The notes below the pieces were generated by a model. That model was not told the DNA's origin. It was given only the letters and a program-made list of their open reading frames with translations, and did not search any database. Source: Laetmonice hystrix (taxonomy: Eukaryota). From it: 64,000 nucleotides of DNA. A program made the translations under genes and the position numbers. Positions 1-62,755 of this stretch are shown in pieces (position 1 is the stretch's first letter; the number at the start of each line of letters is the position of its first letter). The stretch is taken from positions 35,466,001-35,530,000 of the forward strand of contig OZ249436.1 of NCBI GenBank assembly GCA_965235115.1. The letters are read 5' to 3'.

Positions 1-758
1 TATCATCAAGAGTTTGTCGTCAGCTTCCATCACCGGGCCAACGTATTTGTTCAGGTCTTGTTCTGCCTTGCTTGCCTTGGAGCCACCCGACACCCAATAT
101 CGTTTGAACCACATGCACACAGACAAATCAATGGCTTTCAATTTCTCCAGAGATTCATAGGATTTGGAAAATTGTTCAAACACGCTATCGTGCATCGCCA
201 ATGCCTGCCCAATGGTTTCCGAGACATGGATGCCGTCAAGATCCGTGATAATGTGTAATGGATCTAATAGTAAAGCGAGTTGTCCTAAGACATTCAAGCA
301 GGTTTGGTGGAAATGTATAGTGGAATAGTTACTCCAGGTATCTCGATAAAGATACGCGACCGTTTTGTGGTACATGCTAGTGAATTTCTTCAGTTTTCTT
401 GCCCCTATTTCCAGATCATGAATGGGCCTTGTTTTCATTGTGCAAATTCCGTATTTAAGGGTCTGGCATATGCTAAACTGCGGCGGGGGCGATATGGTTG
501 GGAAGTAGTTCACGTTTGATTCAGGGGGATTTTTAGATCTTCCATCATCCATCCAACTATTATCCTCCTCTTCCTCCCCTGACGAATCGAAATCTTGACC
601 CTCGTCCGGTCTGGGCGGCGGACGCTTGTCTCTATCACCGTACAGGTTTGGTGGACCTGTCATCGACGGCTTGTGACGCATTGCCGTCACAGGGCAGGCT
701 TGGTCAGCTGGAATCACCACAACATGGCAGGTTTTCATTGATGTGGCGCTGGTTTGGC

Positions 759-799
<41 letters not shown>

Positions 800-2588
800 G
801 GTGTTGTTGTGGATGTTTGAGATGTTGATTGGGATGTCGTGGGTGCTTTTGTCGTTGGGCTCACTGTAACTGGTTGCGTAGATGTCGTTGAGAGGGACGG
901 CATTGGAGTGACAATAACCACTGGAGACGTACTGCTAATGGTTGTAGATTTGGCGCTTGTTGATTGTAAGGTACTTGACGGTAGGGGGTTATGGGTGAGC
1001 GTTGGCGCCGTACGCAGGGATGTTGTCGTGTCTCTAACTGAATAATCAATGGTTGGTGGGGCAGCCAGTGTTGTTTTATCGAGTATGTCATGTGGATGTG
1101 TTCCTGAGGTTGTTGTCACAGACGCTGGAGTAAGATATGTTGTCTGGTCGCCGGAAGGACCTGAAGCCCCGCTAGAAAGCCAATACGGGTCCATTCGGGT
1201 AGTCTCACCGACTGGGGTAAACACATGGTACGAGGTAAGGCTATCAAGAGTATCTCCTGAACTGTCGTAGTCGGTGGAGATCCAAGAGTCACCACTCCAC
1301 GCTCCAGAAGTGTCCCATGACATATCGGACATGACGTCACTATCAGGGTACGCACTGGTAGGTATATGTGACAGGGTGTCACTTGTCACCCAAGAACTTC
1401 CCTGACTGGTTTCCCCTGGAACTTGACGTTTATAGCGTTGATGACTCTCTGGTGGTCCCTCCATATTTTCTGGTGTTCCATTTAGTGGTCCTTCTGGTGT
1501 TCCATGCGGTGGTCCCTCTGGTCGTCCATCTAGTGGTCCCTGATCTGGTGGTCCATGCGGTGGTCCCTCTGGTGGTCCATCGTGTCGTCTATCTGGTGGT
1601 CCATCTGGTCGGCCGTCCGATGGCCTCCGTCTAGGATGACCATGTGGAGGGTGATTGTGGTCCAATCCGTCGTGGCCCCTATGGTAGTCGGCACCACGGT
1701 CGGGATCCCCATGGTAGTCGGCACCACGGTCGGGATACCCATGGTAGTCGGCGCCACGGTCGGGATCCCCATGGTAGTCGGCGCCATCGCCGGGGCTGCC
1801 GTGGCCGTGACCGCCGTGACCGGCACCGCCGTGGTCGTGGCCGGGACCGCCGTGGCCGGGACCGCCGTGGTCGTGGCCGGGACCGCCGTGGCCGGGACCG
1901 TCGTGGCCGTGGTCCCCATGGCCGTGGTCCCCATGGCCGTGATCGTTGGGCGGCGGTGAAAGGAAACGTTTCATGTCGGAATCGTCACACATGCCCATAG
2001 TTCCATCATCCCCTTGGTAGAATCTTTCGGACATATCTAACTCTCCAGTATTAATGCAAGTGCTAATTACTTCCTTCATGCTTGTGAAGCTGACAGGATT
2101 ATAGAATTGCTTATATAATTGCTCAAGGGCGTTTGTGATTTTGAGAATCGATGGTGGTTCTGGTATATTCTCTAAGTATTTCTTCTTCGCATCGACAAGT
2201 GGTGATTTGTGAGCCAAACTGGTATCAGTAAATGGCCCCCTTTCTTCACCCGTGATGATGTTTGGAATCTCAACGGTTGACGTCAGGGCTGCACCGTTCG
2301 ACAGGTTGACACTGTAATGGTACAGTACGTTGGCAAAGGCCTGGGACGCAGCCAGTACGCGGTCAAACTGGGTCCTATCAGTCAACGCTGTTATCTTGAT
2401 GACTTTCTGAGAAATCTCCCTGGCCTGCAAGAATTGTTCCTTCGTCCGGTTCTTCTTAACCTTATCAAGTAATGCTATTCGATCAACGTTTAAGGTAGAG
2501 ATGGTGGTTGATGACAGTCGTGGTGCGTAGACGACCCTTCGACAAGGTAAACTGCAGGAACAATTGCCTGATTGAAATGTGCTTTCAC
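1..2588 (-). CDS. Channel gene giant exon 11 (end of thumb plus a >800-aa insert; open past the window edge)
   Basis: cttctctttcag| ESTFQSGNCSCSLPCRRVVYAPRLSSTTISTLNVDRIALL... I read the frame to position 1 without meeting a stop. It is missing from the ORF track, probably because it has no stop inside the window. Confidence 0.88.
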
Positions 2589-5500
2589 CTGAAAGAGAAG
2601 ATCACGTTATATTTGACCATGAATCAGTGTGCATGAGTTTATGAGTCTATTTGTCACAGAAAGGGTTTGGTATTCAAAATGAGACCATGACCTTCTTGAA
2701 CAGATAGAACTTTATTATCGGTCAATCTCAGTGTTAGTATGATTTGATCAAGGAGATGGTATAGGGCTAACTCACGTTGGCTGGGTAGAATGCACTGAAA
2801 TTTATCTTTCATCGAGCATATTGGCGCATCTCCTGCAACATAAAACCACACGATCTTGTAAAACACACTTGGTGCTTAGTTTAACATTAAGTTCTGTTAA
2901 GATACACACTATTATTGTACACACCAGCCCGTATCCCCATGTAATATTACACAATGTCATGTGAGCTGCGTTAGTGAGTGTGCATACATTAAAAAAATTA
3001 AAACCTTGGCGTTTGAACAAGAGGGGTTGATGGCTAACAGCCCATGTATAGGCTGACGTAAGATGTCCTGGGAATGATTAAAACACGTGTACTCACCTAC
3101 CATATATATGTCCTTGCATTTGCACCTTTCTATGGCATCCCTTGATTCACATTTAAGTAGGCAATCTCCCCGGGAAGGTGCTCCGCTGACACAGGTACCG
3201 TATGGATCTTCTAGATTTGTTATCTGTTACACATATACTTTATAACACGCTGCGGAAATACCGTCAGACAAGAGTGCAATTATTTGACCGTATTACATTG
3301 TTAGCGCGCAGTGTCATGCAGTCCCAGTTTATTTAAACGCAATTTGATCTCGATTCGAATAATTAAAGAATTTTAGAGGGAGCACATCTGTTTTAAGTAC
3401 ACGTTTTTATGCATTATGCAGTCGGCTTCGAATCATTTACATCAAGATATAAAAACTCGGCTTCGAATCATTCAAACCTATTGAGCTCCCTTCGAGATAC
3501 AATATCCACTAGATGTACTAAAATGGTGTACTACTAAACGAAATAATTTCGGAAGCAAGCAGCCATTCCTCCCACCTCTTTACGGCCTATGGCGACTAAT
3601 GTATGAAATCCTGGTGAAGCAGCAAAGCCTTGATCTCTGATACGTGGTGTATCGGACGGATTGTGTAAGAACACCTGAAAAAAGTTTTATTTTTTGGAGC
3701 TAATTAGGGAAAAGTGATTTTGGCTCACCCTGTCGTAAGCATTCGTATATTTATAAGAATCTTTTTACCTGTAAGATCCAACAATGTTTCGGCGTGGCCA
3801 AAAAAACCAACCACTATTTTAAAGTAACTAATTACAATGCCTCAGTGGGATAATTGTTAAAATTTTTAGATTTTTTTATTTTTTACCCCTTTTTCAGATA
3901 TGTTGCAAATGTGCTACATTGGGTTTCAGTTTCAAAACTCGAATCCAGGTTTGTCACATACATTTCTTTGTAAGATCTATTAGATCTTTACAAACAATAA
4001 AAAACATGGGCTATACCCGGGGGAGCTATGTTTTTAAAAAAGTTTGTTTGCCGGGGGGTCTGGGGGGCCTCCCCCAGGAATTTGTTGCAATACAATTTTG
4101 CTGTTGATGTTGGAAATTTAGCTGAGGTAGCTGCCCCGGCTGCCTCACTGCATTTTACGGCCCTGTATACAACGGGTGCCACATGCCTCTACTGGGGGGG
4201 GGGGGGGGGGTCCGGGGAATTTTTGTTTGTCCTTGTATGACAGAGGGACAGGGGGCCCCCAGATTAAGTTTGCCCCAGCCCCCTCACACTTCTTAATCCA
4301 GCACTGCTGCTGCTACTACTACTATTACTAGTACTAATACTACTATGACTACTGCTACTACTACCACCCCCAATCTGATAAGATGGAATGACTATTATAT
4401 AGTATACGCCCTAATACCAGATTAGCATAGGCTGACATTTGGACATTCATGACAATGAAGACCCAAAGTTGCATTTCTGCAACATCACAAAAACTTGTTG
4501 CATCCAACACTAACCAGCCACTTCAAAAAATATAATCAGATCTGCAGAATCTTGACTCTATAAAGAGTATGTATGAATTTTATTGGAGACTTCACTCACA
4601 TAAGATGCTTAGATAGTTCATGAAATTGTCGGACACTAACCTGCACACGGATACAGCCATCTTGTTTTGGGTGTCATGGCTAGTTCTATGAATGTCTCAC
4701 AGATGGCAGCACAATAGTGTGCATTTCTACAACGTTGGGTTTTCGTGGATATAATTCAGGGTTGATTTCACCACAGTGATATAATGCCCTTGGGCTGGAC
4801 CCCCGGGAAAATTTGTTGCATATTTGCAACAGGGGGTCTTACAGGGTTTTAGACAGATCAATTGAATTTACCTTGATACCGGTATCTTCCTGGGGGCCTC
4901 TCATGTATTGGTACTGCTCCACGTTAAGTACTAGGTGAAGGCCTGCTCCAATGCCTTTGTAAGGAATGAAGACTCAGGTTTACATCAGGTTCTTTTACTG
5001 AGCGTGCTACTAGCAGTTTACTACATTTACTAGCAGTAGGCCTAGATTGTTTCACCTGATGTCATCCTTCTGATGTCATCCTTATTTATTATTCGTGTAA
5101 GTATACCAATTTACATGTTATGCCATGTCTGCCCATACACTCCCACTCCTAGAGCCTGTATTCACTCCCAGACAGTTAAACTTCCCATCATGGCCACTCA
5201 CCGGCGCCAGTTGCATTCATTTGACGTTTAGGATCCGAGTTGAACGTATAACATATTCCCATGTCAGTGACAGATGTATTGAAATTTGTTGTATCGTAAA
5301 CCTTACCACGCCACTTACATCTACAAAAGGCAGGGTGATCATCCGCAGATTATCAACGTATATAGTAACCACCACTTCAAGACAAAGCGGTCATTCGAAT
5401 TAGGCCTCGCTAGTGGTCGCAATAAACCAATGCCTTTACAAGTCTCCTATCAGGCCGCCCTCCCCATTTTTTCATGGATTTAATTATGGTTGCAATAAAC

Positions 5501-8367
5501 TTTAGATTTCCTCTGATTATAATCACTGTATCATGCATGTCTCCCTTCCTGAAAGCTGTGCGCACTTTTTAATATTTTGTCAGATATATAGGCATTGGTA
5601 CATTTTCGCCGGTCGCTATAATAATATGAGTGTGATTATACAATGGTGATTTCTATCGTCGACCGTTATAGACTTACGAGTCGATGAAGTCCAAACGCTG
5701 GTGAGCGGACTGATGAAGAAACTCTGAAGTGTTGATGTGCGAGAAGTTGCCGAACAACGTCAGGTCTGGTTCTATGTATAATGTGTAAAAGGTACATGGA
5801 TACGTTGTGTCAAAATGAACAACTTTGCACACACTCTAGGGATAGCACTGCTTTGTTCAGAGAACGTGATCACTAAATGAAACCCATGAGTTGAAGATCA
5901 GAAACAGGAAACCACCCGGCAGAGATGTACAGGAAGACAATTTTAGAATTATTCGGCCCATAATCCCACAGATTTAAACCTGAGCTTTCCTTATGGATGA
6001 CAAAGTCGGTGGAGGTCGTTGTATATAGACACGGCGATTATTACCGGAGTTTCCAAACACACTATCCAGGTAGTCATAAACGCCGAAATTATTCGCTTCA
6101 ACTAAACTGAAATGAGGGGAGAATTCCTAATTATGTTCAAATTAATATCAATTCTATTTCTTTTCATATATTCGATAAGTTTCACATACAATGCTGTAGG
6201 CCGACATCTAGCTGTATCAATCCCATTAAGACCTTATTAAGACTTCAACTTATCCATTAGATTCTAAAGTAAAACATTATAAACGGAATTAAAATAAAGG
6301 ATTATTTCCTGGCGAAAATCTCCTTTCAATGTGTTCATTCGACTGAAACATTATGCGCCTGAATTGTTAAATGAGATATTGTATGATCTTACCGGAAATT
6401 ATTTTGATTGCATATGGTGACGGCAGGGAAAGGCACGCCTGCCTGGGAATAGACCATCTCCATGTTGACGCTGGATTCACGTTTAAAAAAGTCATGGGTT
6501 CTCCAACCAACCCACACTCCGAACATAATCACAGCTGTCATAACACATGTAAACCATGCCGCCCTGCAGACAAAAGGTACGATTATAACACATGTAAACC
6601 ATGCCGCCCTGCAGACAAAAGGTGCGATTATAACACATGTAAACCATGCCGCTCTGCAGACAAAAGGTACGATTATAACACATGTAAACCATGCCGCTCT
6701 GCAGGCAAAAGGTACGATTATAACACATGTAAACCATGCCGCTCTGCAGACAAAAGGTACGATTATAACACAATGTAAACCATGCCGCTCTGCAGACAAA
6801 AGGTACGATTATAACACATGTAAACCATGCCGCTCTGCAGGCAAAAGGTACGATTATAACACATGTAAACCATGCCGCTCTGCAGACAAAAGGCGCGATT
6901 ATAACACATGTAAACCATGCCGCTCTGCAGGCAAAAGGTACGATTATAAAACAACTGGTGAAGTGATGCTGCATTAATCTCGACAGCCTAAAATAATTTG
7001 TTTTTCTGTCAAATCTCTTTCCTGCGAATCCGAGGACTGCAAGTCTATTGATCGTAGTAGTTTTGTTTGGACATTTCCGGTTTATGTGCAGATAAATAAT
7101 GTATACTAAGCCTCTGTAGACCATGTCAACAAATACCATAGGGGTGTATGGATATTTCGAAAATCGATGACAGATCAAGAAGTTCAAAGCTAAAAATTAG
7201 AGGGGAAAAGTTAAGGTACTTGCCTCCGAATGCCAATAGGCTTGTTATCAAATATATATTTGATGCCATGGAAAGTTGTACTTTGTGTAAACTCGTTCCA
7301 AGATATGACCTCCTCAGGCTGTAGATCTATGTCCGCCTCGGGCCGAGTTGCCCCTGGCTGAGCTGTCTCTGGTGGAGTCTCCACTGGTTTGTTTCCCTCA
7401 GGTCGAGTCACATCCGGCCAAGCGAGGTTAACCTTCTCGGGTTTTGTGTCGCCTTCCTCCGCTGCCCTGATATGAAAGATGAAGAAAGTTATTATGTATA
7501 TCTGATAGGATGAAACCTATTAGTACGCTGGTATCAGCATGTTGGCAGATTTCGAGTCCTAATAATACCCCCATATATCGGGTGGGCCAAAAGAAATTGA
7601 AACACTGTAATATTTGGAACATGATATCATCTGCAAGCCTGTTCCACTAAGCCCGAAAGACGTCTTTGAAATGGTCGCTGAGCCCAAAGAGGTCTTTGCG
7701 GCGACGGGTGTTCCACTAAGTTCCTATTCTTTAACATTGGCCCCGCAAAGACGTCTTTCCGTTAGTGGAACGGACGGTATGACGTGACGTCAAATGTATG
7801 AAATGCCCTATGCCAAAAACTGGTGGCTAGTCCCGACTTAAACCCCATGGGCACCATTTGGGATCCCCTGTCTGAAAAAGTCAATAAAGATCGCAAACAA
7901 AAATTCGCCGAGAACGAATACTATTAACCATATAACATGATGCCCTAAATATCAGTGACAAACTATGAAAATTGTAGAAGCTATAGTCAAGTAAACAGTG
8001 TTCCAGACACAGCGGGGCCAACTCTGCTGAGGACGCCTGGTCCGGCATTGCAAGTTTTGCAGTTTTTAAAATGACCCTATTTTTAGACAATTTGACCTAT
8101 TCATCTGAAATTTGTACCATGCACAGGCCCCAATTAACCAGATGATAATCATGTTCCAAATATTTTGACATTGGGGGTAAAAATTATAGATGTTACAGTC
8201 AAGAAAAGAGTCGAGAAAAGAAAAGAATAGTTGGGCGATTATATGCAACATTATGTAGGAAATGTTATGAATACATCTAAGTAGTACATTCTATTTAAGA
8301 GTAGCCAATATTGTCCGTTTTGTATCAAGGTCTATACTTACCTGACGAGAATCTCCCTTGCAGACAT
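1..8367 (-). CDS. DEG/ENaC/ASIC-family amiloride-sensitive-type cation channel subunit with a giant extracellular insertion (3' end, including TM2, outside window)
   Basis: Manual splicing join(8367-8342,7466-7224,6563-6393,6106-6045,5771-5678,5320-5202,4954-4872,3674-3576,3223-3097,2832-2776,2588-<1) gives 3669 nt = 1223 codons with all intron phases matching. Family motifs: FTQSTTFHG (pre-TM1 HG), TM1, FPAVTICNQN, GICYTFN, GLHLVLNVEQ, GFAASPG, PYGTC..C...C..CKC thumb, CSCSLPC....Y...LS. Confidence 0.93.
2776..2832 (-). CDS. Channel gene exon 10 (thumb)
   Basis: ttttatgttgcag| GDAPICSMKDKFQCILPSQ |gtgagt. Confidence 0.92.
3097..3223 (-). CDS. Channel gene exon 9 (Cys-rich thumb)
   Basis: gtgtaacag| ITNLEDPYGTCVSGAPSRGDCLLKCESRDAIERCKCKDIYMV |gtgagt. 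Confidence 0.92.
3576..3674 (-). CDS. Channel gene exon 8
   Basis: cttttttcag| VFLHNPSDTPRIRDQGFAASPGFHTLVAIGRKE |gtggga. Confidence 0.92.
4872..4954 (-). CDS. Channel gene exon 7
   Basis: ccttacaaag| GIGAGLHLVLNVEQYQYMRGPQEDTGIK |gtaaat. Confidence 0.92.
5202..5320 (-). CDS. Channel gene exon 6
   Basis: ccttttgtag| CKWRGKVYDTTNFNTSVTDMGICYTFNSDPKRQMNATGA |gtgagt. Confidence 0.92.
5678..5771 (-). CDS. Channel gene exon 5
   Basis: atacatag| EPDLTLFGNFSHINTSEFLHQSAHQRLDFIDS |gtaagt. Confidence 0.88.
6045..6106 (-). CDS. Channel gene exon 4
   Basis: cctcatttcag| LVEANNFGVYDYLDSVFGNS |gtaata; phases fit both neighbours. Confidence 0.8.
6393..6563 (-). CDS. Channel gene exon 3 (TM1 and FPAVTICNQN)
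   Basis: ttttgtctgcag| AAWFTCVMTAVIMFGVWVGWRTHDFFKRESSVNMEMVYSQAGVPFPAVTICNQNNFR |gtaaga. The 5' boundary is ambiguous because the acceptor is tandemly repeated. Confidence 0.9.
6541..6947. repeat. 45-bp tandem repeat x9 spanning the intron 2/exon 3 junction
   Basis: Unit TAACACATGTAAACCATGCCGCYCTGCAGRCAAAAGGTACGATTA starts at 6541, 6586, 6631, 6676, 6721, 6766 (one extra A), 6812, 6857 and 6902. Confidence 0.97.
7224..7466 (-). CDS. Channel gene exon 2 (cytoplasmic N-terminus and HG motif)
   Basis: Acceptor tttcatatcag|; encodes ...WNEFTQSTTFHGIKYIFDNKPIGIRR; ends at a GC donor, AG|gcaagt. Confidence 0.9.
7641..7771. mobile_element. Small hairpin/MITE-like element in intron 1
   Basis: GTTCCACTAA...TTAGTGGAAC terminal inverted repeat with subterminal AAAGACGTCTTT palindromes. 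Confidence 0.45.
8342..8367 (-). CDS. Channel gene coding exon 1 (MSAREILVR)
   Basis: ATG at 8367; strong CAG|gtaagt donor at 8342/8341; phase 2 matches the exon starting at 7466. Confidence 0.7.
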
Positions 8368-9820: not shown

Positions 9821-11515
9821 TCACTGTGCCTGTAAATCAACTGAACTTGACCAGATCTGGCGGGCATCAGATAATATCTTGCCGAACACGTCGATTTCAA
9901 ACTTGCCGAGTTGCTTCCGAAATCCCCGGTTGGGGTCGATAATGGGGCGCCTCTCCTTGACGAATAAATAGGAATCTTTCAGCGACATCCGCCTAGTTAA
10001 CATAAGATAGGCAATCACCACAGTGGAACTGCGACTTGCTCCAAGGTTACAGTGTACTAGAACAATGCCCTTGTCGGCAATGGCATCCTGGATGAACTGT
10101 ATGGCAGCGGGTAGTTTGGATAGAATGTCAGCACCTGCCTCGTCGTTCACCTTAACATTGTGGTATTTTATTTTGTCCTCAAACGCATTAAAGTGTTCCT
10201 TTGTGATATTCACAATATGCGATATCTTAAGGTCCGTGACAATATTCTCATTGGCTGCTTGGTCCCCACGGCCCAGATATAGGTTGTGAAGAATTGCTGA
10301 GGGATATTGGACTAGAAGTTTCTGACGTTCTTTACCTGTGCAAACTACTCGATCATTACATAAAAACGGAAACGCCGTGTCAAAGGCTTCAAAGCCACCT
10401 TGAAGGATCATGGGCGCCACACGCTTACCCTGTAGGTGTTCCACTGTGACACTCAGGGTGCTTTCCGTGAGAGAATGGGTAAGTCCGTTGTTATCGTACA
10501 CCACGATCAGACTGTATTCATGAAGAGGCAGAAGTTGGTCGTTCCGGTCAAGCTCTTCCACATGATATGACGTGGTTATGTGGCTGTTCCGGTACAGCCC
10601 TTCGTCTCGTGTGTCTACAATCAACAGACACGACGGGTCGAACAGGTATGGACTGAGCTGTCCGTCGGCCATCTTGTTGTATAGCTGCGTCACTGATATC
10701 GTGCCGTCATCCTGTGTTAGAGACGCGCGGTCTGACGTGAAAGGTCCCAGAACACGACCTGACACTCGCCCCACTGAGGGTCCGTGACTAGAGCCAGCCG
10801 ACAGGGCTTCCATTGACGTCTGCGTTCCGTCAGCTTCTGATGAAGACGTCATGACGTTATCGAATGAAAACTTTGGGCGGTTAATCTCTCTGCAGGATTG
10901 TCCCAAAGCCTGTGTGGGAAGACGTGCATCTAATGGTAGGCCTATGGGAGGTAGGTTCCATCGGTTAGACAGAGCTACGTCAGCGGCAGGCCGTGCAGGT
11001 GGCGGAACCGGAACTGCAGACGCCGGCCCAATGCGGCAGCTACGTCCTCGCTTAACCTTTCGCTTGGTCACCTTTTCTCCAGTTTCCCCTTTGGGCTTGC
11101 AATCTTTACCTAAATCAGTGATTAAACCCGGAGAAATCTGACAATAAGGCCTAGGCATAATCTAGGCTTAGACTCTGGCATTAAAATGCAGTTTATGGAA
11201 GTTAAAATAGGGATAGACCTATCATCAAAAATGTAAGCTATAGGCCTAATACTCATAGGCCTACTTAATGAGAGCTTCTAATGAAGACCTTACACAATTA
11301 AGTTCTAGGAATATCAAATGTAGTAAAATGTCAGTTTATTTTAATAGGCTAAACTGTGCATGCAGGATGCTAGACCTAGACCGATAAGTCACGTACGTAT
11401 CTCAATACGTCGGTCTAGGCCTACTAAATACTGGTCTACAGGCCGGTTGTCATACCTTCAAGGTCGTCCTCCGCCGCGAAGAGTGTTTGACGCAAAGGAA
11501 CACGAGTGATTGCAT
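9821..11515 (-). CDS. STYXL1: STYXL1 (MK-STYX)-like rhodanese/CH2 plus dual-specificity phosphatase with an intact catalytic motif
   Basis: ORF 9821-11158 contains TQLYN..., LLIVDTR...SHITT, IVVYDNN, ILQGGFEAF, QYPSAIL..LYLG, DLKISHIVN, VLVHCNLGASRSSTVVIAYLM and PNRGF..QL..FE..VFG, collinear with STYXL1 as I recall it. Likely model: join(11515-11456,11137-9821), using AAG|gtatga and cttattgtcag|ATT, phase 0. Confidence 0.82.
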
Positions 11516-17079: not shown

Positions 17080-17440
17080 CGATCTCCCTGGATAACATGG
17101 AGGTCATGTACGGGGTCATCCTGGGACAGGAACACGGGTAAACTTTGCGATCAAACGACAGTGTGTTATTTATAAATTTTAAAACCTCCTCCGGTTAGAT
17201 CCGTCTACATGCAGTGTTTTATATAGGCTTATGTCTAGTTTTAAACTGGTAGTCCTACTTTGTCTCCAATACACCCTGCCACTAAGGTAAACATCGATAT
17301 AGACTCTATAGCCTAAATTAACAATTTGCATCAGTAAGAAAACATGACAACCTTGAACAGCTGAGATATCCGCCACAACACCTGGTTTTTATGTAGAATC
17401 TCAGTACTTCAGGGATGCCTTCCCCTGCCACACCCCCAAC

Positions 17441-19425
17441 CGTGGGATGTATACGGCCAGGTCTGGGCCGGGGGTATAGGCAGCAGTGGGATGTACAGCC
17501 AGGTCTGGGCGGGGGCAGGGCAGCAGTGGGATGTACGGCCAGGTCTGGGCGAGGGCAGGGCAGCAGTGGGATGTACGGCCAGGTCTGGGCCGGGGATAGG
17601 GCAGTGGGATGTACGGCCAGGTCTGGGCCGGGGATAGGGCAGTGGGATGTACGGCCAGGTCTGGGCGAGGGCAGGGCAGCAGTGGGATGTACGGCCAGGT
17701 CTGGGCCGGGGGTAGGGCAGTGGGATGTACGGCCAGGTCTGGGCCGGGGGTAGGGCAGCAGTGGGATGTACAGCCAGGTCTGGGCCGGGGGTAGGGCAGC
17801 AGTGGGATGTACGGCCAGGTCTGGGCCGGGGATAGGGCAGTGGGATGTACGGCCAGGTCTGGGCGAGGGCAGGGCAGCAGTGGGATGTACGGCCAGGTCT
17901 GGGCCGGGGGTAGGGCAGTGGGATGTACGGCCAGGTCTGGGCCGGGGGTAGGGCAGCAGTGGGATGTACAGCCAGGTCTGGGCCGGGGGTAGGGCAGCAG
18001 TGGGATGTACGGCCAGGTCTGGGCCGGGGGCAGGGCAGCAGTGGGATGGACGGCCAGGTCTGGGCCGGGGACAGGGCAGCAGTGGGATGTACGGCCAGGT
18101 CTGGGCGGGGGCAGGGCAGCAGTGGGATGTACGGCCAGGTCTGGGCCGGGGGCAGGGCAGCAGTGGGATGTACGGCCAGGTCTGGGCCGGGGGTAGGGCA
18201 GCAGTGGGATGTACGGCCAGGTCTGGGTGGGGACAGGGCAGCAGTGGGACGTACGGCCAGGTCTGGGCCGGGGACAGGGCAGCAGTGGGATGTACGGCCA
18301 GGTCTGGGCGGGGGCAGTGCAGCAGTGGGATGTACGGCCAGGTCTGGGCCGGGGGTAGGGCAGCAGTGGGGTGTACGGCCAGGTCTGGGCCGGGGGTAGG
18401 GCAGCAGTGGGATGTACGGCCAGGTCTGGGCCGGGGGTAGGGCAGCAGTGGGGTGTACGGCCAGGTCTGGGCGGGGGTAGGGCAGCAGTGGGATGTACGG
18501 CCAGGTCTGGGCTGGGGACAGGGCAGCAGTGGGATGTACGGCCAGGTCTGGGCGGGGGTAGGGCAGCAGTGGGATGGACGGCCAGGCCTGGGTGGGGACA
18601 GGGCAGCAGTGGGATGTACGGCCAGGTCTGGGTGGGGACAGGGCAGCAGTGGGATGTACGGCCAGGTCTGGGCCGGGGGTAGGGCAGCAGTGGGATGTAC
18701 GGTCAGGTCTGGGTGGGGGCAGTGCAGCAGTGGGATGTACGGCCAGGTCTGGGCTAGGGACAGGGCAACAGTGGGATGTACGGCCAGGTCTGGGTGGGGA
18801 CAGGGCAGCAGTGGGATGTACGGCCAGGTCTGGGCCGGGGGGAGGGCAGCAGTGGGATGTACGGCCAGGTCTGGGCTAGGGACAGGGCAACAGTGGGATG
18901 TACGGCCAGGTCTGGGCGGGGGCAGGGCAGCAGTGGGATGTACGGTCAGGTCTGGGCCGGGGGTAGGGCAGCAGTGGGATGTACGGCCAGGTCTGGTCCG
19001 GGGGTAGGGCAGCAGTGGGATGTACGGCCAGGTCTGGGCCGGGGGTAGGGCAGCAGTGGGATGTACGGTCAGGTCTGGGCCGGGGGTAGGGCAGCAGTGG
19101 GATGTACAGCCAGGTCTGGTCCGGGGGTAGGGCAGCAGTGGGATGTACGGCCAGGTCTGGTCCGGGGGTAGGGCAGCAGTGGGATGTACGGCCAGGTCTG
19201 GGCCGGGGGTAGGGCAGCAGTGGGATGTACGGTCAGGTCTGGGCCGGGGGTAGGGCAGCAGTGGGATGTACGGTCAGGTCTGGGCCGGGGACAGGGCAGC
19301 AGTGGGATGTACGGCCAGGTCTGGGCCGGGGACAGGGCAGCAGTGGAATGTACGGCCAGGTCTGGGCCGGGGGTAGGGCAGCAGTGGGATGTACGGCCAG
19401 GTCTGGGTGGGGACAGGGCAGCAGT
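17441..19425. repeat. G-rich 38-41-bp minisatellite, roughly 50 copies
   Basis: Consensus GTGGGATGTACGGCCAGGTCTGGGCCGGGGGTAGGGCAGCA. Confidence 0.98.
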
Positions 19426-38563: not shown

Positions 38564-38709
38564 TACAGATACAGAGAGAGAGAGAGACAGATGGAGACAA
38601 CTAGAGACAGATAGAGACAGACAGAGAGAAAATAAAGAGAGACAGATAAAGACAGACAGATAGAGAGAGACAGAGAGAGGCAGAGAGAGACAGATAGAGA
38701 CAGAGAGCG

Positions 38710-38757
<48 letters not shown>
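38479..38757. repeat. (GA)n / GACA compound microsatellite
   Basis: Direct reading. Confidence 0.97.
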
Positions 38758-38813
38758 CAAGCATCGCGTCTGCATCGCGTCTGTATACGGCGTGACTGGT
38801 GCAGGAATGACCG

Positions 38814-40036
38814 GGCTGGTTATCCCTGTACCGAGACGACGAGCTGGTTATCCCTGTACCGAGACGACGAGCTGGTTATCCCTGTACCGAGACGACGAGC
38901 TGGTTATCCCTGTACCGAGACGACGAGCTGGTTATCCCTGTACCGAGACGACGAGCTGGTTATCCCTGTACCGAGACGACGAGCTGGTTATCCCTGTACC
39001 GAGACGACGAGCTCCCTGTACCGAGACGACGAGCTGGTTATCCCTGTACCGAGACGACGAGCTGGTTATCCCTGTACCGAGACGACGAGCTGGTTATCCC
39101 TGTACCGAGACGACGAGCTGGTTATCCCTGGTTATCCCTGTACCGAGACGACGAGCTGGTTATCCCTGGTTATCCCTGTACCGAGACGACGAGCTGGTTA
39201 TCCCTGGTTATCCCTGTACCGAGACGACGAGCTGGTTATCCCTGGTTATCCCTGTACCGAGACGACGAGCTGGTTATCCCTGGTTATCCCTGTACCGAGA
39301 CGACGAGCTGGTTTTCCCTGGTTATCCATGTACCGAGACGACGAGCTGGTTATCCCTGTACCGAGACGACGAGTTGGTTATCCCTGTACCGAGACGACGA
39401 GCTGGTTATCCCTGTACCGAGACGACGAGCTGGTTATCCCTGGTTATCCCTGTACCGAGACGACGAGCTGGTTATCCCTGGTTATCCCTGTACCGAGACG
39501 ACGAGCTGGTTTTCCCTGGTTATCCATGTACCGAGACGACGAGCTGGTTATCTCTGTACCGAGACGACGAGCTGGTTATCCCTGTACCGAGACGACGAGC
39601 TGGTTATCCATGTACCGAGACGACGAGCTGGTTATCCCTGTACCGAGACGACGAGCTGGTTATCCCTGTACCGGGACGACGAGCTGGTTATCGCTGTACC
39701 GAGACGACGAGCTGGTTATCCCTGTACCGAGACGACGAGCTGGTTATCCCTGTACCGAGACGACGAGCTGGTTATCCCTGTACCGAGACGACGAGCTGGT
39801 TACCGAGACGACGAGCTGGTTATCCCTGTACCGAGACGACGAGCTGGTTATCCCTGTACCGAGACGACGAGCTGGTTATCCCTGTACCGAGACGACGAGC
39901 TGGTTATCCCTGTACCGAGACGACGAGCTGGTTATCCCTGTACCGAGACGACGAGCTGGTTATCCCTGTACCGAGACGACGAGCTGGTTATCCCTGTACC
40001 GAGACGACGAGCTGGTTATCCCTGTACCGAGACGAC
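38814..40036. repeat. 28-bp minisatellite, about 40 copies
   Basis: Unit GAGCTGGTTATCCCTGTACCGAGACGAC; some units carry an extra CTGGTTATCC. Confidence 0.98.
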
Positions 40037-43000
40037 GGCCAAGTTTTACCACATTTGATTTGTGAGTGTATAATCCACTGAGTCGGTGGGAGAAAAAGAA
40101 GAGTAATTGATATTTGCCGAACACGGGATGTCAACCGGCTGAGTGTCTGCCGATGGTAAAATAGTCACGTGTCTGTCTATACCACATTCTGTAAATGATA
40201 CTGTCGCTATAGGATCCCTAATTATATTCTGATTTACTTTACTCTGGGTTTTTTTAACCACTATTCATTGGCATTAGTTATATGCTTGATTTCACTTCCT
40301 GTATGCATTCTGTATAGAGCAAAACATGTTGCGCCGCATACAACGGCTCCCCACAGATCTGTATCTAACTGTGTACACTATACCTACACTATATATACAG
40401 TGTGTTGTTTTAAATCAATTGACACCAAGTAACGATAATGAAATTAATATTTCGAGAAATATTTTTCTAGTTCGTAGAACAGCAGTGTAAGTAACTTAAC
40501 ATGACATATATTTGGCGGGTTTGACCTATTGTATAGGATGCACATATTTCAGGAATATTTCTCGCACCAGTGTGGTACAGAGTGGGCTGTTTCTCAAGTA
40601 AGACGTTGGAGGGATAACGTTACCCTGTATGTATATGTCTTGTATACGATATATTTCGTCTCGTCATTGATTGATGGTCGACGCCATGTTAGAAAACTAT
40701 CCGATCAACGCTTTTAAATGTGAATGGCTTTTTATTACCTAAGCGTATTGAGCAGGTAGATAGAACGAGGTCAAAGGTACAGAAATTGCATCGGCTTCTC
40801 AATGTCCGCCTCAGGCTGTGCCTCGTTTGACTGATGGGTGCAGGCTCTGAGGCTATGCCACCCAAGTCAATCCCCAGCCCATAGACTTTCTATATAATGT
40901 GGTCACCGAAAAAAGGAAATGACAACACAACCAAAAAGGTTGATGGTGAGGGGGCCTATAAAGGAAAAGAATTGTTCTGAGGGAGTCACGACACATACAT
41001 GTGTGCACATAATGATGACTGATATACTATAGGGCCATTATTGTTTATTTGGCTGTGTAGTGGAATTTTTTTTTTTTTTTTTTTTTTGGGGGGGGGGGGA
41101 ATAAAACATTGCAAATATTACGAGCGTTCAAAGGAACACAGTGCAGCTGGCGTTTGTCGTTACTATCTCGTATGTCGCTAATCATTCTCCTTCTTTTAAA
41201 TATTGTTCATCTCATTTTCCCTATTGATATATTCCTTCCCCTGCAGGTTCAAAACCTCTTTAGTTTCCGTTGACATTGTGCAATTATTGGATGTAATCGA
41301 TATAAAGAGTGTGAATAGGGTATCGGAGAATGGAAACGTCTTTTTGACGTATCACAGACGGGCTCGGACTGTCCGGACTCACAGGCATGTCGTACAGTAC
41401 CCTGGCATTAGGGTTCAGTCTCGTATATTACTCATGGTATACCAATATCATTTGGTTATCTCACAGGTCAATATATCCCTGTCTCTGGGTTCGGCCTTTG
41501 TTGCCCATAATATATCGGGTACTACTTTTGGGGTGTAATGAATCTGATGTAATAAAATCTGATTACACATGCTTTAAATCACTGTGAGTGTTAGTGAAGT
41601 ACATGTATCAGTATACCGCAGGTTTGAAATGTATAGCAGTTTCAAGAAAAGTTGTAGAATCGACAGCCGTGGGAAATCCATGCACCAGTTTGATTCATTC
41701 AATCCTATATGGTCGCCTTTCTCTGTAGAAACCTTTGGAGACCAATCAGGCCAGTACTTTCGCGTATATATACATGCACCTCCCCAACCCGCCCCCATTA
41801 GTTGGCATTACCAAACATGCAATGGCGTTTGCTGTACATTTAAACGGTCTGCTGGAATCTAATTGCGATATATACTTATTGTCGACTTCAAAGTCGAGAA
41901 CCGTCGCTCACAAACCAAACGACCTCTTTGAACCCGACAGTAGCGGACGTCGTATAAGCCCTTCATATGTCTGTCATCCCAAGTAGGTCTTCAGAAGTTA
42001 AATTAAATCTCAATCGGCACCGTGGAGCTGGAAGATGCGCTTTAGGATAAGTTGACAGGTAACAAGTGCTGGGATGGGGGCTGTTAAAGCGATGATTTAG
42101 AGGTGGTAGTCGTTGTTGGCGGGCGGTGCGGTGGGCTGACCTGTGGGTGGGCCACCCAGCCCCGCCACCCGGCCCACCTTTTATGTGGCGCAACGTGAAT
42201 TTTATTACTCTCTACCCGACTACTGATGAAGCGTGTGAAATATCATCATTGAAATGTATCCATTATTCACAGAGTTCGGCATCGTTACCTGTGCACGATA
42301 CTGAGAATAGCTTCGCACAAAGAAAGGATATAGCAACACAGCAGCAGACAACGATTAATACTATAATGGACATTTACATGACATTGAATCCTATAATGGT
42401 CACATGACATTGTTATACATGCATGATTATAATGACTTGTATAGGCCAGACATTATATAGATGATACATAAATTTATGTTCCTTTTATTTGTTATGTGAA
42501 ACATTTGTCCATAAAACCCCAACAAACTATCCTTCAATGAAAACACGCATATTTCCGCATTAATATAGCCTAAGCTGAATGTATATCCTTTTAGGTTTTA
42601 GGTGACAGGTTTCTAAAGGTGGATTTCGTACTCTGTTATTGACGTGTCCTTGCTACAGTTTACATGTACATGTATATGGCCAGTGGTGTCCAGTGAACCT
42701 CCGTCGAATCATGCCGTCATTATACCCAGTGATTTATGTTGTTTCAAAAGGTGCATCATGTCAAAAATACTATCTGTTCTAGCCACGTGAGATAATCATC
42801 TGGAAATGAATTTCGCTGCTTTCAATTACCTATATGTGGAAAAGAACGACTTCCATTCAAGCCAGTAAAAGCCCCTCTTAAAAAGAGAAAAAAGTAGCTT
42901 GGCTAACGTATTACTTGCTAACTTAAGACTGACTTTATAACAATAAGGTTTTAACCTGTAATGACTGGTTAGAATGCGTTAGCCCTATATTTATGAGTGT

Positions 43001-61804: not shown

Positions 61805-62755
61805 TCAGTGGAAATCCTCGGTTTCTGATTTAAAGTGTACGTCATCATCTGGAGTCCGACCGAGAGGACCGTCCGGAAGTGTTTGGTAGGTCACCGGACT
61901 GGACACGTCTCTGGGTTCACGTTTCACATGGACAGGGCTCCTGGAGGGGGGTAGTGGGGTAGATGTGATGACGGTGGGGGACGTGGAGCAGCACCGCCCG
62001 ACGTCCGCCTGTATAGGGGACGGTGTCCGGTCACCGAAACCAAGCAGCCCAGTCGTCTCGATGGCAGCCCCCTGGCGGGCAGACGGAGAGACAAACGTGC
62101 AGCCAGGTTCGGGACTGTTGGGCGGTGACGGGGTCGGCGGGGTCGGCGGACGCTCAACTTGGAAGCCGACTGGTTGCGTGATTGGATAAAGAGGATACAT
62201 GCCCAGAGACAGCGGGTTCATAGACTTACTGGCCTGTACCCTCGGATATTTAGAGTTCGGTCTCCTACCACGAGGCACCTTGGGCGCCTCTAATAAACTC
62301 TCAATGCTGAAAGGACTTTTGAGGGCGGGTTTCGCCTGTTGTTGATTGTCGGGTGACCTTCCGGATTGGCTGTGGCCTGACTGTCCTTCTAGTTGAGTGT
62401 CAACCTCACCATTTATTTCCTCACCGACAACGTCGATTTCGTTATCTGTGATGGCGTCCCGACTACAATCCATACCGTCAGCGGTCGAGTCCTCGCCCGA
62501 GTCTGTGCCTGACAGTGGACGTGCCTCGCGGCCCGTCATTGACGCTTGACGTTTACGTTCCTCTAAACGACGCAGACGTTCCTCCTGTTTCCGCCGTTTT
62601 TTCTCTGACCGATCTGCTTCCCGCCGTTTGAGCTCCTCGGGATCGATGGGGTCGCCCGAGCAGGTCTGAGGGTGCGCGTTGTGAGCCGGCCGACCTGGGC
62701 CCTTCTTCGTATTTTCCTTTTTACGCCATTTGGCCCGTCTGTTCTGGAACCATAC
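61805..62755 (-). CDS. UNCX: Uncx/unc-4 paired-class homeobox gene, last coding exon (upstream exons outside window)
   Basis: Acceptor ttttctctgttgtag| at the classic helix-3 intron position, then VWFQNRRAKWRKKENTKKGPGRPAHNAHPQTCSGDPIDPEELKRREADRSEKKRRK, the post-homeodomain signature of Uncx/unc-4. It is in frame with ORF 61805-62539, which carries the eh1 motif FSIESLL (62311-62291). Confidence 0.95.
   Translation of the reverse strand, partial: VWFQNRRAKWRKKENTKKGPGRPAHNAHPQTCSGDPIDPEELKRREADRSEKKRRKQEERLRRLEERKRQASMTGREARPLSGTDSGEDSTADGMDCSRDAITDNEIDVVGEEINGEVDTQLEGQSGHSQSGRSPDNQQQAKPALKSPFSIESLLEAPKVPRGRRPNSKYPRVQASKSMNPLSLGMYPLYPITQPVGFQVERPPTPPTPSPPNSPEPGCTFVSPSARQGAAIETTGLLGFGDRTPSPIQADVGRCCSTSPTVITSTPLPPSRSPVHVKREPRDVSSPVTYQTLPDGPLGRTPDDDVHFKSETEDFH

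Follow-up and report, generated by a model that had tools for sequence, protein, structure and literature searches.

A predicted helical tower at the knuckle of a clade of invertebrate DEG/ENaC channels, extended by a mucin-like loop in Laetmonice hystrix

Matrix tethering of DEG/ENaC channels in force sensing is a long-standing question (excerpts of PMC10148893). Shear sensing by alpha-ENaC depends on N-glycans of the palm and knuckle that serve as tethers (excerpts of PMC6955349), and the relief of ENaC gating inhibition by furin cleavage is established (excerpts of PMC6197857). ENaC belongs to clade B of the family; its GRIP domain, the protease-sensitive part, lies in the finger, and one glycan serves as the tether at the knuckle. 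The lophotrochozoan FaNaC/WaNaC channels, including MGIC, are likewise placed in clade B (PMC10507113, in part), and four Platynereis channels, MGIC among them, are 508-614 aa long in the available part of 10.1101/261990. ASIC1/ASIC2 and BASIC (ASIC5) belong to clade A (PDB 6ave, 9mky; PF00858). A histidine in strand beta-1 is important for proton-gated ASICs, and Caenorhabditis elegans DEL-10 (Q10025, NP_495302), whose stimulus is stated to be unknown, has been placed in an ASIC/BASIC subclade (excerpts of PMC9822975). DEL-10 has 1069 aa, with about 370 residues between the last thumb Cys motif and the post-knuckle strand (PMC9822975 supplement, in part). It gave no current differing from controls in an oocyte pH screen, although a figure legend counts it among the channels with amiloride-blocked currents at pH 7.4 (both from excerpts of PMC10424705).

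Here we describe a subunit with a far larger knuckle. The window, a stretch of 64,000 nucleotides of Laetmonice hystrix (assembly GCA_965235115.1, contig OZ249436.1, positions 35,466,001 to 35,530,000), holds most of a DEG/ENaC gene on its minus strand. The encoded protein has in common with the ASIC/BASIC channels the core domains, the thumb cysteines, the HG motif and a TM2 with GAS filter, and differs from ASIC1 by about 1000 extra residues near ASIC1 residue 393-395, where its relatives have 460-525. The alignment to ASIC1 breaks at residues 373-395, narrowed to about 393-395 with a second relative, a place between the two helices of the knuckle. The main result reaches beyond this gene: a predicted helical domain, here called the tower, appears to mark a clade of channels, one branch of which adds a mucin-like loop with a furin-type site.

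A channel gene with one very long exon

Splice-site reading of the window and its left flank gives an intact model of 12 exons and 1486 aa, in which all acceptors are AG, ten donors are GT and one is GC.

8342..8367, minus strand: exon 1, putative (ATG; aa 1-8), from an ATG and a GT donor whose phase fits exon 2; less certain than the rest of the model
7224..7466, minus strand: exon 2, cytoplasmic N-terminus and HG motif; GC donor
6393..6563, minus strand: exon 3, TM1 and FPAVTICN; PF00858 match 22-88; the final copy of a 45-bp tandem repeat holds its acceptor
6045..6106, minus strand: exon 4, short finger region; splice model
5678..5771, minus strand: exon 5, finger; splice model
5202..5320, minus strand: exon 6, beta-ball/palm with C200 and Y207; splice model and alignment to ASIC1 and a relative
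4872..4954, minus strand: exon 7; splice model
3576..3674, minus strand: exon 8; splice model
3097..3223, minus strand: exon 9, thumb cysteines; splice model
2776..2832, minus strand: exon 10, thumb; splice model
1..2588, minus strand: exon 11, window part; the whole exon ends at contig position 35465432
contig positions 35465179-35464957, left of the window: exon 12, TM2/GAS and stop; splice model

A minus-strand frame runs without a stop from window position 2601 to base 1 and for 568 bases past the window edge (1057 codons from stop to stop). Within it, exon 11 begins at 2588 behind a canonical acceptor and covers 3157 nt (aa 361-1412). A 252-nt intron follows, and exon 12 then supplies the post-knuckle strand, TM2, the selectivity filter G1455-A-S1457 just beyond the window, and the stop. 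The HG motif before TM1 is retained (H75-G76, exon 2). PF00858 matches the locus in two separate parts, both above cut-off, at positions 22-88 in the TM1 exon and 399-455 in the TM2 exon, while exon 11 in between matched no Pfam family above cut-off and no SEA or other mucin domain. These results bear out a sequence-only reading of the window's first 2,588 nucleotides, which had proposed a DEG/ENaC subunit of at least 1223 aa with an insert at the knuckle position within one exon, and a TM2 with a GxS filter to be sought beyond the edge. A pseudogene was rejected on the sequence, the 1057-codon frame being open and the 12-exon model complete with TM2.

All ten thumb cysteines and the pair C141/C222 are kept in the ectodomain, and C200 stands without its usual partner: in the segment of aa 200-207 (window 5320-5202), a Tyr (Y207) occupies the place of a Cys conserved in ASIC1 and in a tower relative. 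This one substitution, in the beta-ball, could be an allele or an error. Upstream, the 45-bp tandem repeat (window 6540-6953; 9.2 copies, 95% matches) copies the intron-exon junction of the TM1 exon. Its five proximal AG acceptors are mutually in frame, so that, depending on which of them is used, the protein could gain 0-4 copies of a hydrophobic 15-aa unit ahead of TM1; the four distal acceptors stand one base out of this frame.

Since the exon model comes from genomic sequence alone, in a region with tandem repeats, the long exon might be an artefact of modelling or assembly, its low-complexity part being an intron or spliced out. We consider this very improbable. None of 5000 composition-matched simulations kept the frame of the loop free of stops (mean 13.9, minimum 3), the other five frames across the loop contain 10-27 stops, and the window part of exon 11 holds no strong acceptor-like site. 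A single sample with three public runs has contigs in every one of the 30 bins of the stretch, although these runs may derive from the source individual and so are not independent of the assembly. Relative to these contigs, the indels inside exon 11 measure 15 and 3 nt, both in frame, and those outside 2, 1, 2 and 5 nt. Furthermore, proteins from other assemblies have an open loop at the same place. Among the 40 substitutions listed (24 more exist), 33 fall in exon 11 and create no stop; 16 of these 33 leave the amino acid unchanged, where about 25% would be expected to (p 0.003). By part of the insert, the listed variants are synonymous in 13 of 23 cases in the helical blocks, against about 22% expected, and in 3 of 10 in the loop, as expected under neutrality.

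Elsewhere in the window, a single open frame with rhodanese and dual-specificity phosphatase matches (9821-11161, minus strand; PF00581, PF00782) ends about 1.5 kb upstream of the putative start of the channel. Another minus-strand frame, at 61805-62755, opens with the C-terminal homeodomain motif VWFQNRRAKW and presumably represents a paired-class homeobox exon. Long tandem-repeat arrays with several open frames, at 17318-19273 and 38636-40081, are probably non-coding satellites.

Composition and predicted structure of the insert

The insert of about 1000 aa has two layers, a helical tower and a disordered loop of about 490 aa that separates the two halves of the tower. From the N-terminal side, its blocks are as follows.

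1963..2514, minus strand: tower, N-terminal half, with C538 and C561 (aa 386-569); composition, alignment, AlphaFold2, profile comparison
1654..1962, minus strand: His/Gly/Asp repeats, observed in this lineage only (aa 570-672; G 32%, H 20%, D 17%); DNA repeats of 15, 30 and 36 bp
1438..1653, minus strand: Gly-Pro-Pro repeats (aa 673-744); 12-bp DNA repeat
1426..1437, minus strand: candidate furin/proprotein-convertase-type site RYKR (aa 745-748), followed by Gln; motif
1150..1425, minus strand: Ser/Asp/Gly-rich tract (aa 749-840); composition
730..1149, minus strand: Thr/Ser mucin-like tract with poly-Thr (aa 841-980; T 36%, S 16%); composition
490..729, minus strand: Cys motif (C981, C992), Pro stretch and acidic patch with Ser-Gly and Ser-Trp (aa 981-1060); composition, alignment
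1..489, minus strand: tower, C-terminal half, window part (aa 1061-1223, continuing to aa 1412 outside the window); composition, AlphaFold2

The succession of helical, His/Gly/Asp, GPP, Ser/Thr, acidic and helical blocks stands as it had first been read from the sequence; that reading had overlooked the RYKR site.

For the full-length nemertean relative from Lineus (80 rows; mean pLDDT 87.2, pTM 0.67), AlphaFold2 predicts an ASIC-like core, with matches to ASIC structures at E about 1e-20, and an all-helical insert whose long helices count 84 and 75 residues. An alpha helix rises 1.5 A per residue, and helices of this size would be 11-13 nm long. For the focal exon (29 rows), block pLDDT is mostly 72-97 in both helical halves and about 25-49 in the loop, with residues ~200-697 of the exon disordered in the model. 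Structure searches with the focal model gave no Foldseek match at E 0.001 for the insert and, with VIA-align, generic bundles only. The best of these, a designed four-helix bundle, scored Z 11.4, which is within the range usual for helical models, so that no homologue is claimed and the absence of one is not established. The four-helix-bundle alignments run from model residue ~70 to ~1036 (range ends only), consistent with both helical halves forming one bundle of about 520 aa. Comparing the profiles of two alignments that share no rows gave a match (probability 100, E 1.3e-54, 569 columns) and puts the focal loop at Lineus residue 533, the turn that follows the first long helical run; the loop thus probably sits far from the membrane. 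In these models the knuckle has become a folded bundle of helices, and the disordered loop leaves this bundle where most relatives have a short turn. The tower's orientation and height are inferred.

Spread of the tower and affinity of its channels

Three paralogues in the same genome have at the same place a single exon of 530-550 aa, which runs from the last of the thumb cysteines to the same F-F-x exon end. At least ten paralogous open frames of 497-595 codons were found, the focal frame alone reaching 1057; there are at least three further loci with a split or broken match, these paralogue counts being lower bounds. The genome as a whole has at least 97 PF00858 matches, with many intronless DEG/ENaC genes, some in tandem arrays (C5:25.20-25.28 Mb, C4, C2, C21 and others). 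Another DEG/ENaC gene (L033:7247-6240, C13 near 26.55 Mb) carries a low-complexity insert in the finger region, just past FPxVTFCN, with Gly-Gln-Asn-Gly-Pro repeats, an RPRR site and a Pro-rich stretch in that order; from its sequence it looks like an independent insertion of repeats plus a furin site. Two long frames that adjoin a further DEG/ENaC match (L037:6076-150; 488 and 1502 aa) resemble by eye the gag and pol genes of an LTR retrotransposon of Ty3/gypsy type.

Searching 1.84 billion sequences with a HMMER profile of four tower exons returned 380 representatives at E 0.001 and 122 at 1e-10. Among the 30 members examined of 150 listed, named carriers are Lineus, Tubulanus, Capitella, Owenia, Dimorphilus, Pecten, Argopecten, Ruditapes, Babylonia, Haliotis, Littorina, Argonauta and Lingula; a separate search added Solemya. 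The entries are mostly annotated as 'uncharacterized'. The insert measures 462-525 aa in 11 of 18 full-length relatives (cut by a motif rule that did not cut the other seven), 1008 aa in the focal protein and 16 aa in a hemichordate control. Among matches of at least 400 aa, 71 of 107 stop right behind the F-F-x motif, which fits an intron common to the clade at that point. In a tree of the core only, all 19 tower rows lie on one side of a branch (SH-aLRT 98), and an Owenia protein is nearest to the focal channel; this is a quick tree with limited outgroups, one hemichordate protein plus 18 channels from this genome that lack introns. On sequence evidence, the tower marks a clade whose channels come from annelids, nemerteans, molluscs and brachiopods.

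The domain seems to have gone largely unnoticed. A word-indexed homolog search with the whole of exon 11 gave no match at E 0.001 and, with the C-terminal block, a single protein; an Atlas feature search with the tower alone gave no usable match. In full-text literature whose coverage leaves out most subscription journals, no paper describing such an insert was found, and the available text of PMC10507113, which notes uncharacterised clades, has no passage on one. The tower is easily missed because alignment trimming removes it: published trimmed rows of DEL-10, in the part available, lack most of the insert. A helical domain of about 500 aa on a large clade of invertebrate DEG/ENaCs is thus apparently not previously described. 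The sequence-only reading had supposed that the helical flanks might already be known, which the literature searched does not support; its expectation that they are a family feature and the low-complexity core rarer holds.

Other long ectodomains occur. P0037 (817 aa) is a tower channel in which a Thr/Glu-rich repeat tract is inserted close to where the tower ends on its C-terminal side, by its sequence a second site of mucin-like expansion. P0162 from Ptychodera (1054 aa) is a long DEG/ENaC without a tower, and its Pfam list also holds PF00431, PF00090 and PF00057, which we take to be CUB, thrombospondin-1 and LDL-receptor A domains.

By score ranking against reference entries, on which the assignment rests, the core of tower channels is ASIC/BASIC-like and not MGIC/FaNaC-like. 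One relative's core scores 202 bits against ASIC1, 180 against BASIC, 115 against FaNaC and at most 93 against ENaC, and a second scores 209 against ASIC1 versus 89 against FaNaC. Full-length tower relatives reach 194-209 bits with ASIC1/2 entries, which top the lists, and 126-180 bits with BASIC. Kinship with MGIC, suggested in the first reading, is rejected: FaNaC/WaNaC entries score 115 and 94 bits only, far under ASIC1, and the Platynereis channels have the canonical length given above. DEL-10 may stand closer. A scallop tower channel is named 'degenerin-like protein del-10' at NCBI, and an Atlas feature search with a scallop member retrieved a nematode del-10 cluster at 0.95. DEL-10 has its insert at the corresponding site, and by eye the start and end of that insert resemble the tower, a putative homology; the insert is shorter than that of the focal channel and no long mucin-like loop is visible. 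The term DEL-10 was not found in the supplements of PMC9949801.

These comparisons also bear on whether the subunit conducts. It could be non-conducting or modulatory, acting in heteromers only or serving chiefly at the cell surface or in adhesion: the beta-1 His of ASICs is absent (a Ser is at the aligned place, read by eye), one conserved Cys is lost, and DEL-10 passed no significant current in the pH screen. We regard this as quite improbable, as the HG motif, TM2 and GAS filter are retained and DEL-10 is named among the amiloride-blocked currents.

Evolution of the loop and possible roles

Between fixed anchors, the segment that holds the loop measures 19-110 aa in 25 of the 29 near-relative rows and 429-712 aa in the other four, which represent three lineages (the focal protein; P0022 and P0151, one cluster; P0135). 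With the loop removed, these four proteins form one clade (SH-aLRT 99), and identity to the focal helical blocks is 44-52% in the nearer lineage and 25-27% in the farther. An R-x-[KR]-R site is present in all four long loops and in none of the 25 short ones. Since short loops have less room for such a site, shuffle probabilities are the fairer measure (0.055, 0.032, 0.027 and 0.023 for the four long loops). The order of furin site, Ser-rich tract, Thr-rich tract and acidic patch with Ser-Gly and Ser-Trp is common to all three lineages, and C561 and C1068 are kept in all four rows. The loop sequence itself aligns to the nearest lineage only over its last ~150 aa (35%), and the focal loop gave no alignment to the farther lineage. 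The His/Gly and GPP repeats are private to the focal lineage, as is a second motif, RDKR followed by Pro, which the other long-loop lineages lack. Metal capture by the His/Gly repeats is disfavoured as a conserved role, as is the ion capture proposed in the first reading, these repeats being missing from both of the other lineages with a long loop.

Membrane mucins and cell-surface proteoglycans have Ser/Thr-rich repeats of variable length, a processing site and Ser-Gly beside acidic residues. The focal loop resembles them in its tracts, processing site and acidic Ser-Gly and differs in being an internal loop within the folded domain of an ion channel. In composition it agrees with a mucin tract. 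Its number of Ser-Gly pairs is close to chance (8 against 7.2 expected, p 0.44), so the idea of glycosaminoglycan chains is weak here; elsewhere the enrichment has p 0.004 and 0.0008 in P0022 and P0151, and 0.22 in the farther lineage.

Part of this variation is what one would see if the tower were a structural spacer that helps in assembly, clustering or contact between cells, and if the loop were repetitive coding sequence that evolves fast, is tolerated and hardly affects gating. Between the same anchors the loop ranges from 429 to 712 aa, two near-identical long-loop proteins differ by one 59-aa repeat unit, variants in the loop appear neutral and the focal lineage alone has the His/Gly and GPP repeats. 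This is unlikely in our view, given that the furin site, the Ser-then-Thr order, C561/C1068 and the acidic patch persist across lineages whose towers are only 25-27% identical.

Alternatively, the tower might be a receptor domain for a ligand or protein and the loop a glycan shield or regulatory cap; cleavage of the loop would then activate the channel, as furin does in ENaC but at another site. The tower is well folded in the models and occurs in several subfamilies, with ten paralogous frames in this genome, as ligand-specific receptors often show; every long loop has a furin-type site, and the stimulus of DEL-10 has been left open. Against such a role, ENaC takes two cuts to free its inhibitory finger peptide and here a single site is shared, RDKR being focal only; the loop seems distant from the finger/thumb gating surface; and neither Foldseek nor VIA-align matched a specific ligand-binding fold. 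We therefore hold a receptor role to be rather unlikely.

Our preferred reading, to which we give somewhat less than an even chance, is that the focal protein is an intact subunit of the ASIC/BASIC branch with a built-in extracellular tether that couples the channel to mucus or matrix. Going by general rules for such motifs, the loop would be cut at RYKR in the secretory pathway and its Ser/Thr tracts would be O-glycosylated, and a glycosaminoglycan chain may be attached to the acidic Ser-Gly. Once cut, the loop would form two free arms while the channel stays assembled, because the channel core and the bundle keep both halves together. The rigid tower would raise the arms off the membrane, where they may engage mucus, cuticle or matrix; drag or pull would then pass from knuckle to palm to gate, as force-from-filament gating or modulation of the cation channel. 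The tether reading is supported by the glycan-tether precedent of alpha-ENaC at palm and knuckle, which the focal channel resembles in having a furin-type site in an extracellular insertion and a potential matrix tether at the knuckle, a 500-aa domain with a mucin-like loop in place of ENaC's one glycan. It is also supported by the furin site and block order kept in three lineages that form one clade. The mostly unconserved loop sequence with its neutral-looking variants weighs against it, as do the Cys-to-Tyr change at aa 207 and the lack of a significant DEL-10 current in the pH screen. Moreover, most tower channels are without a long loop, and a tether role there would need another partner.

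Extending the tether reading to the whole group, we tentatively put forward, as a possibility more doubtful than probable, an overlooked protostome DEG/ENaC subfamily that includes DEL-10 and in which a knuckle tower of about 10 nm is the gating tether; one branch would bear furin-opened mucin/proteoglycan arms at the tip of the tower and be a single-gene mechanosensor, channel and tether in one, for flow, mucus or cuticle strain. The tower is a large, presumably rigid domain, with a putatively glycosylated arm in one branch, on the element implicated in ENaC shear sensing, which makes the tether model testable by deletions. Should DEL-10 prove to belong to the group, such a test could draw on a genetic model and on an orphan channel. 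Even without a tether role, a predicted folded domain of about 500 aa with no Pfam family, found in hundreds of sequence clusters, needs a function.
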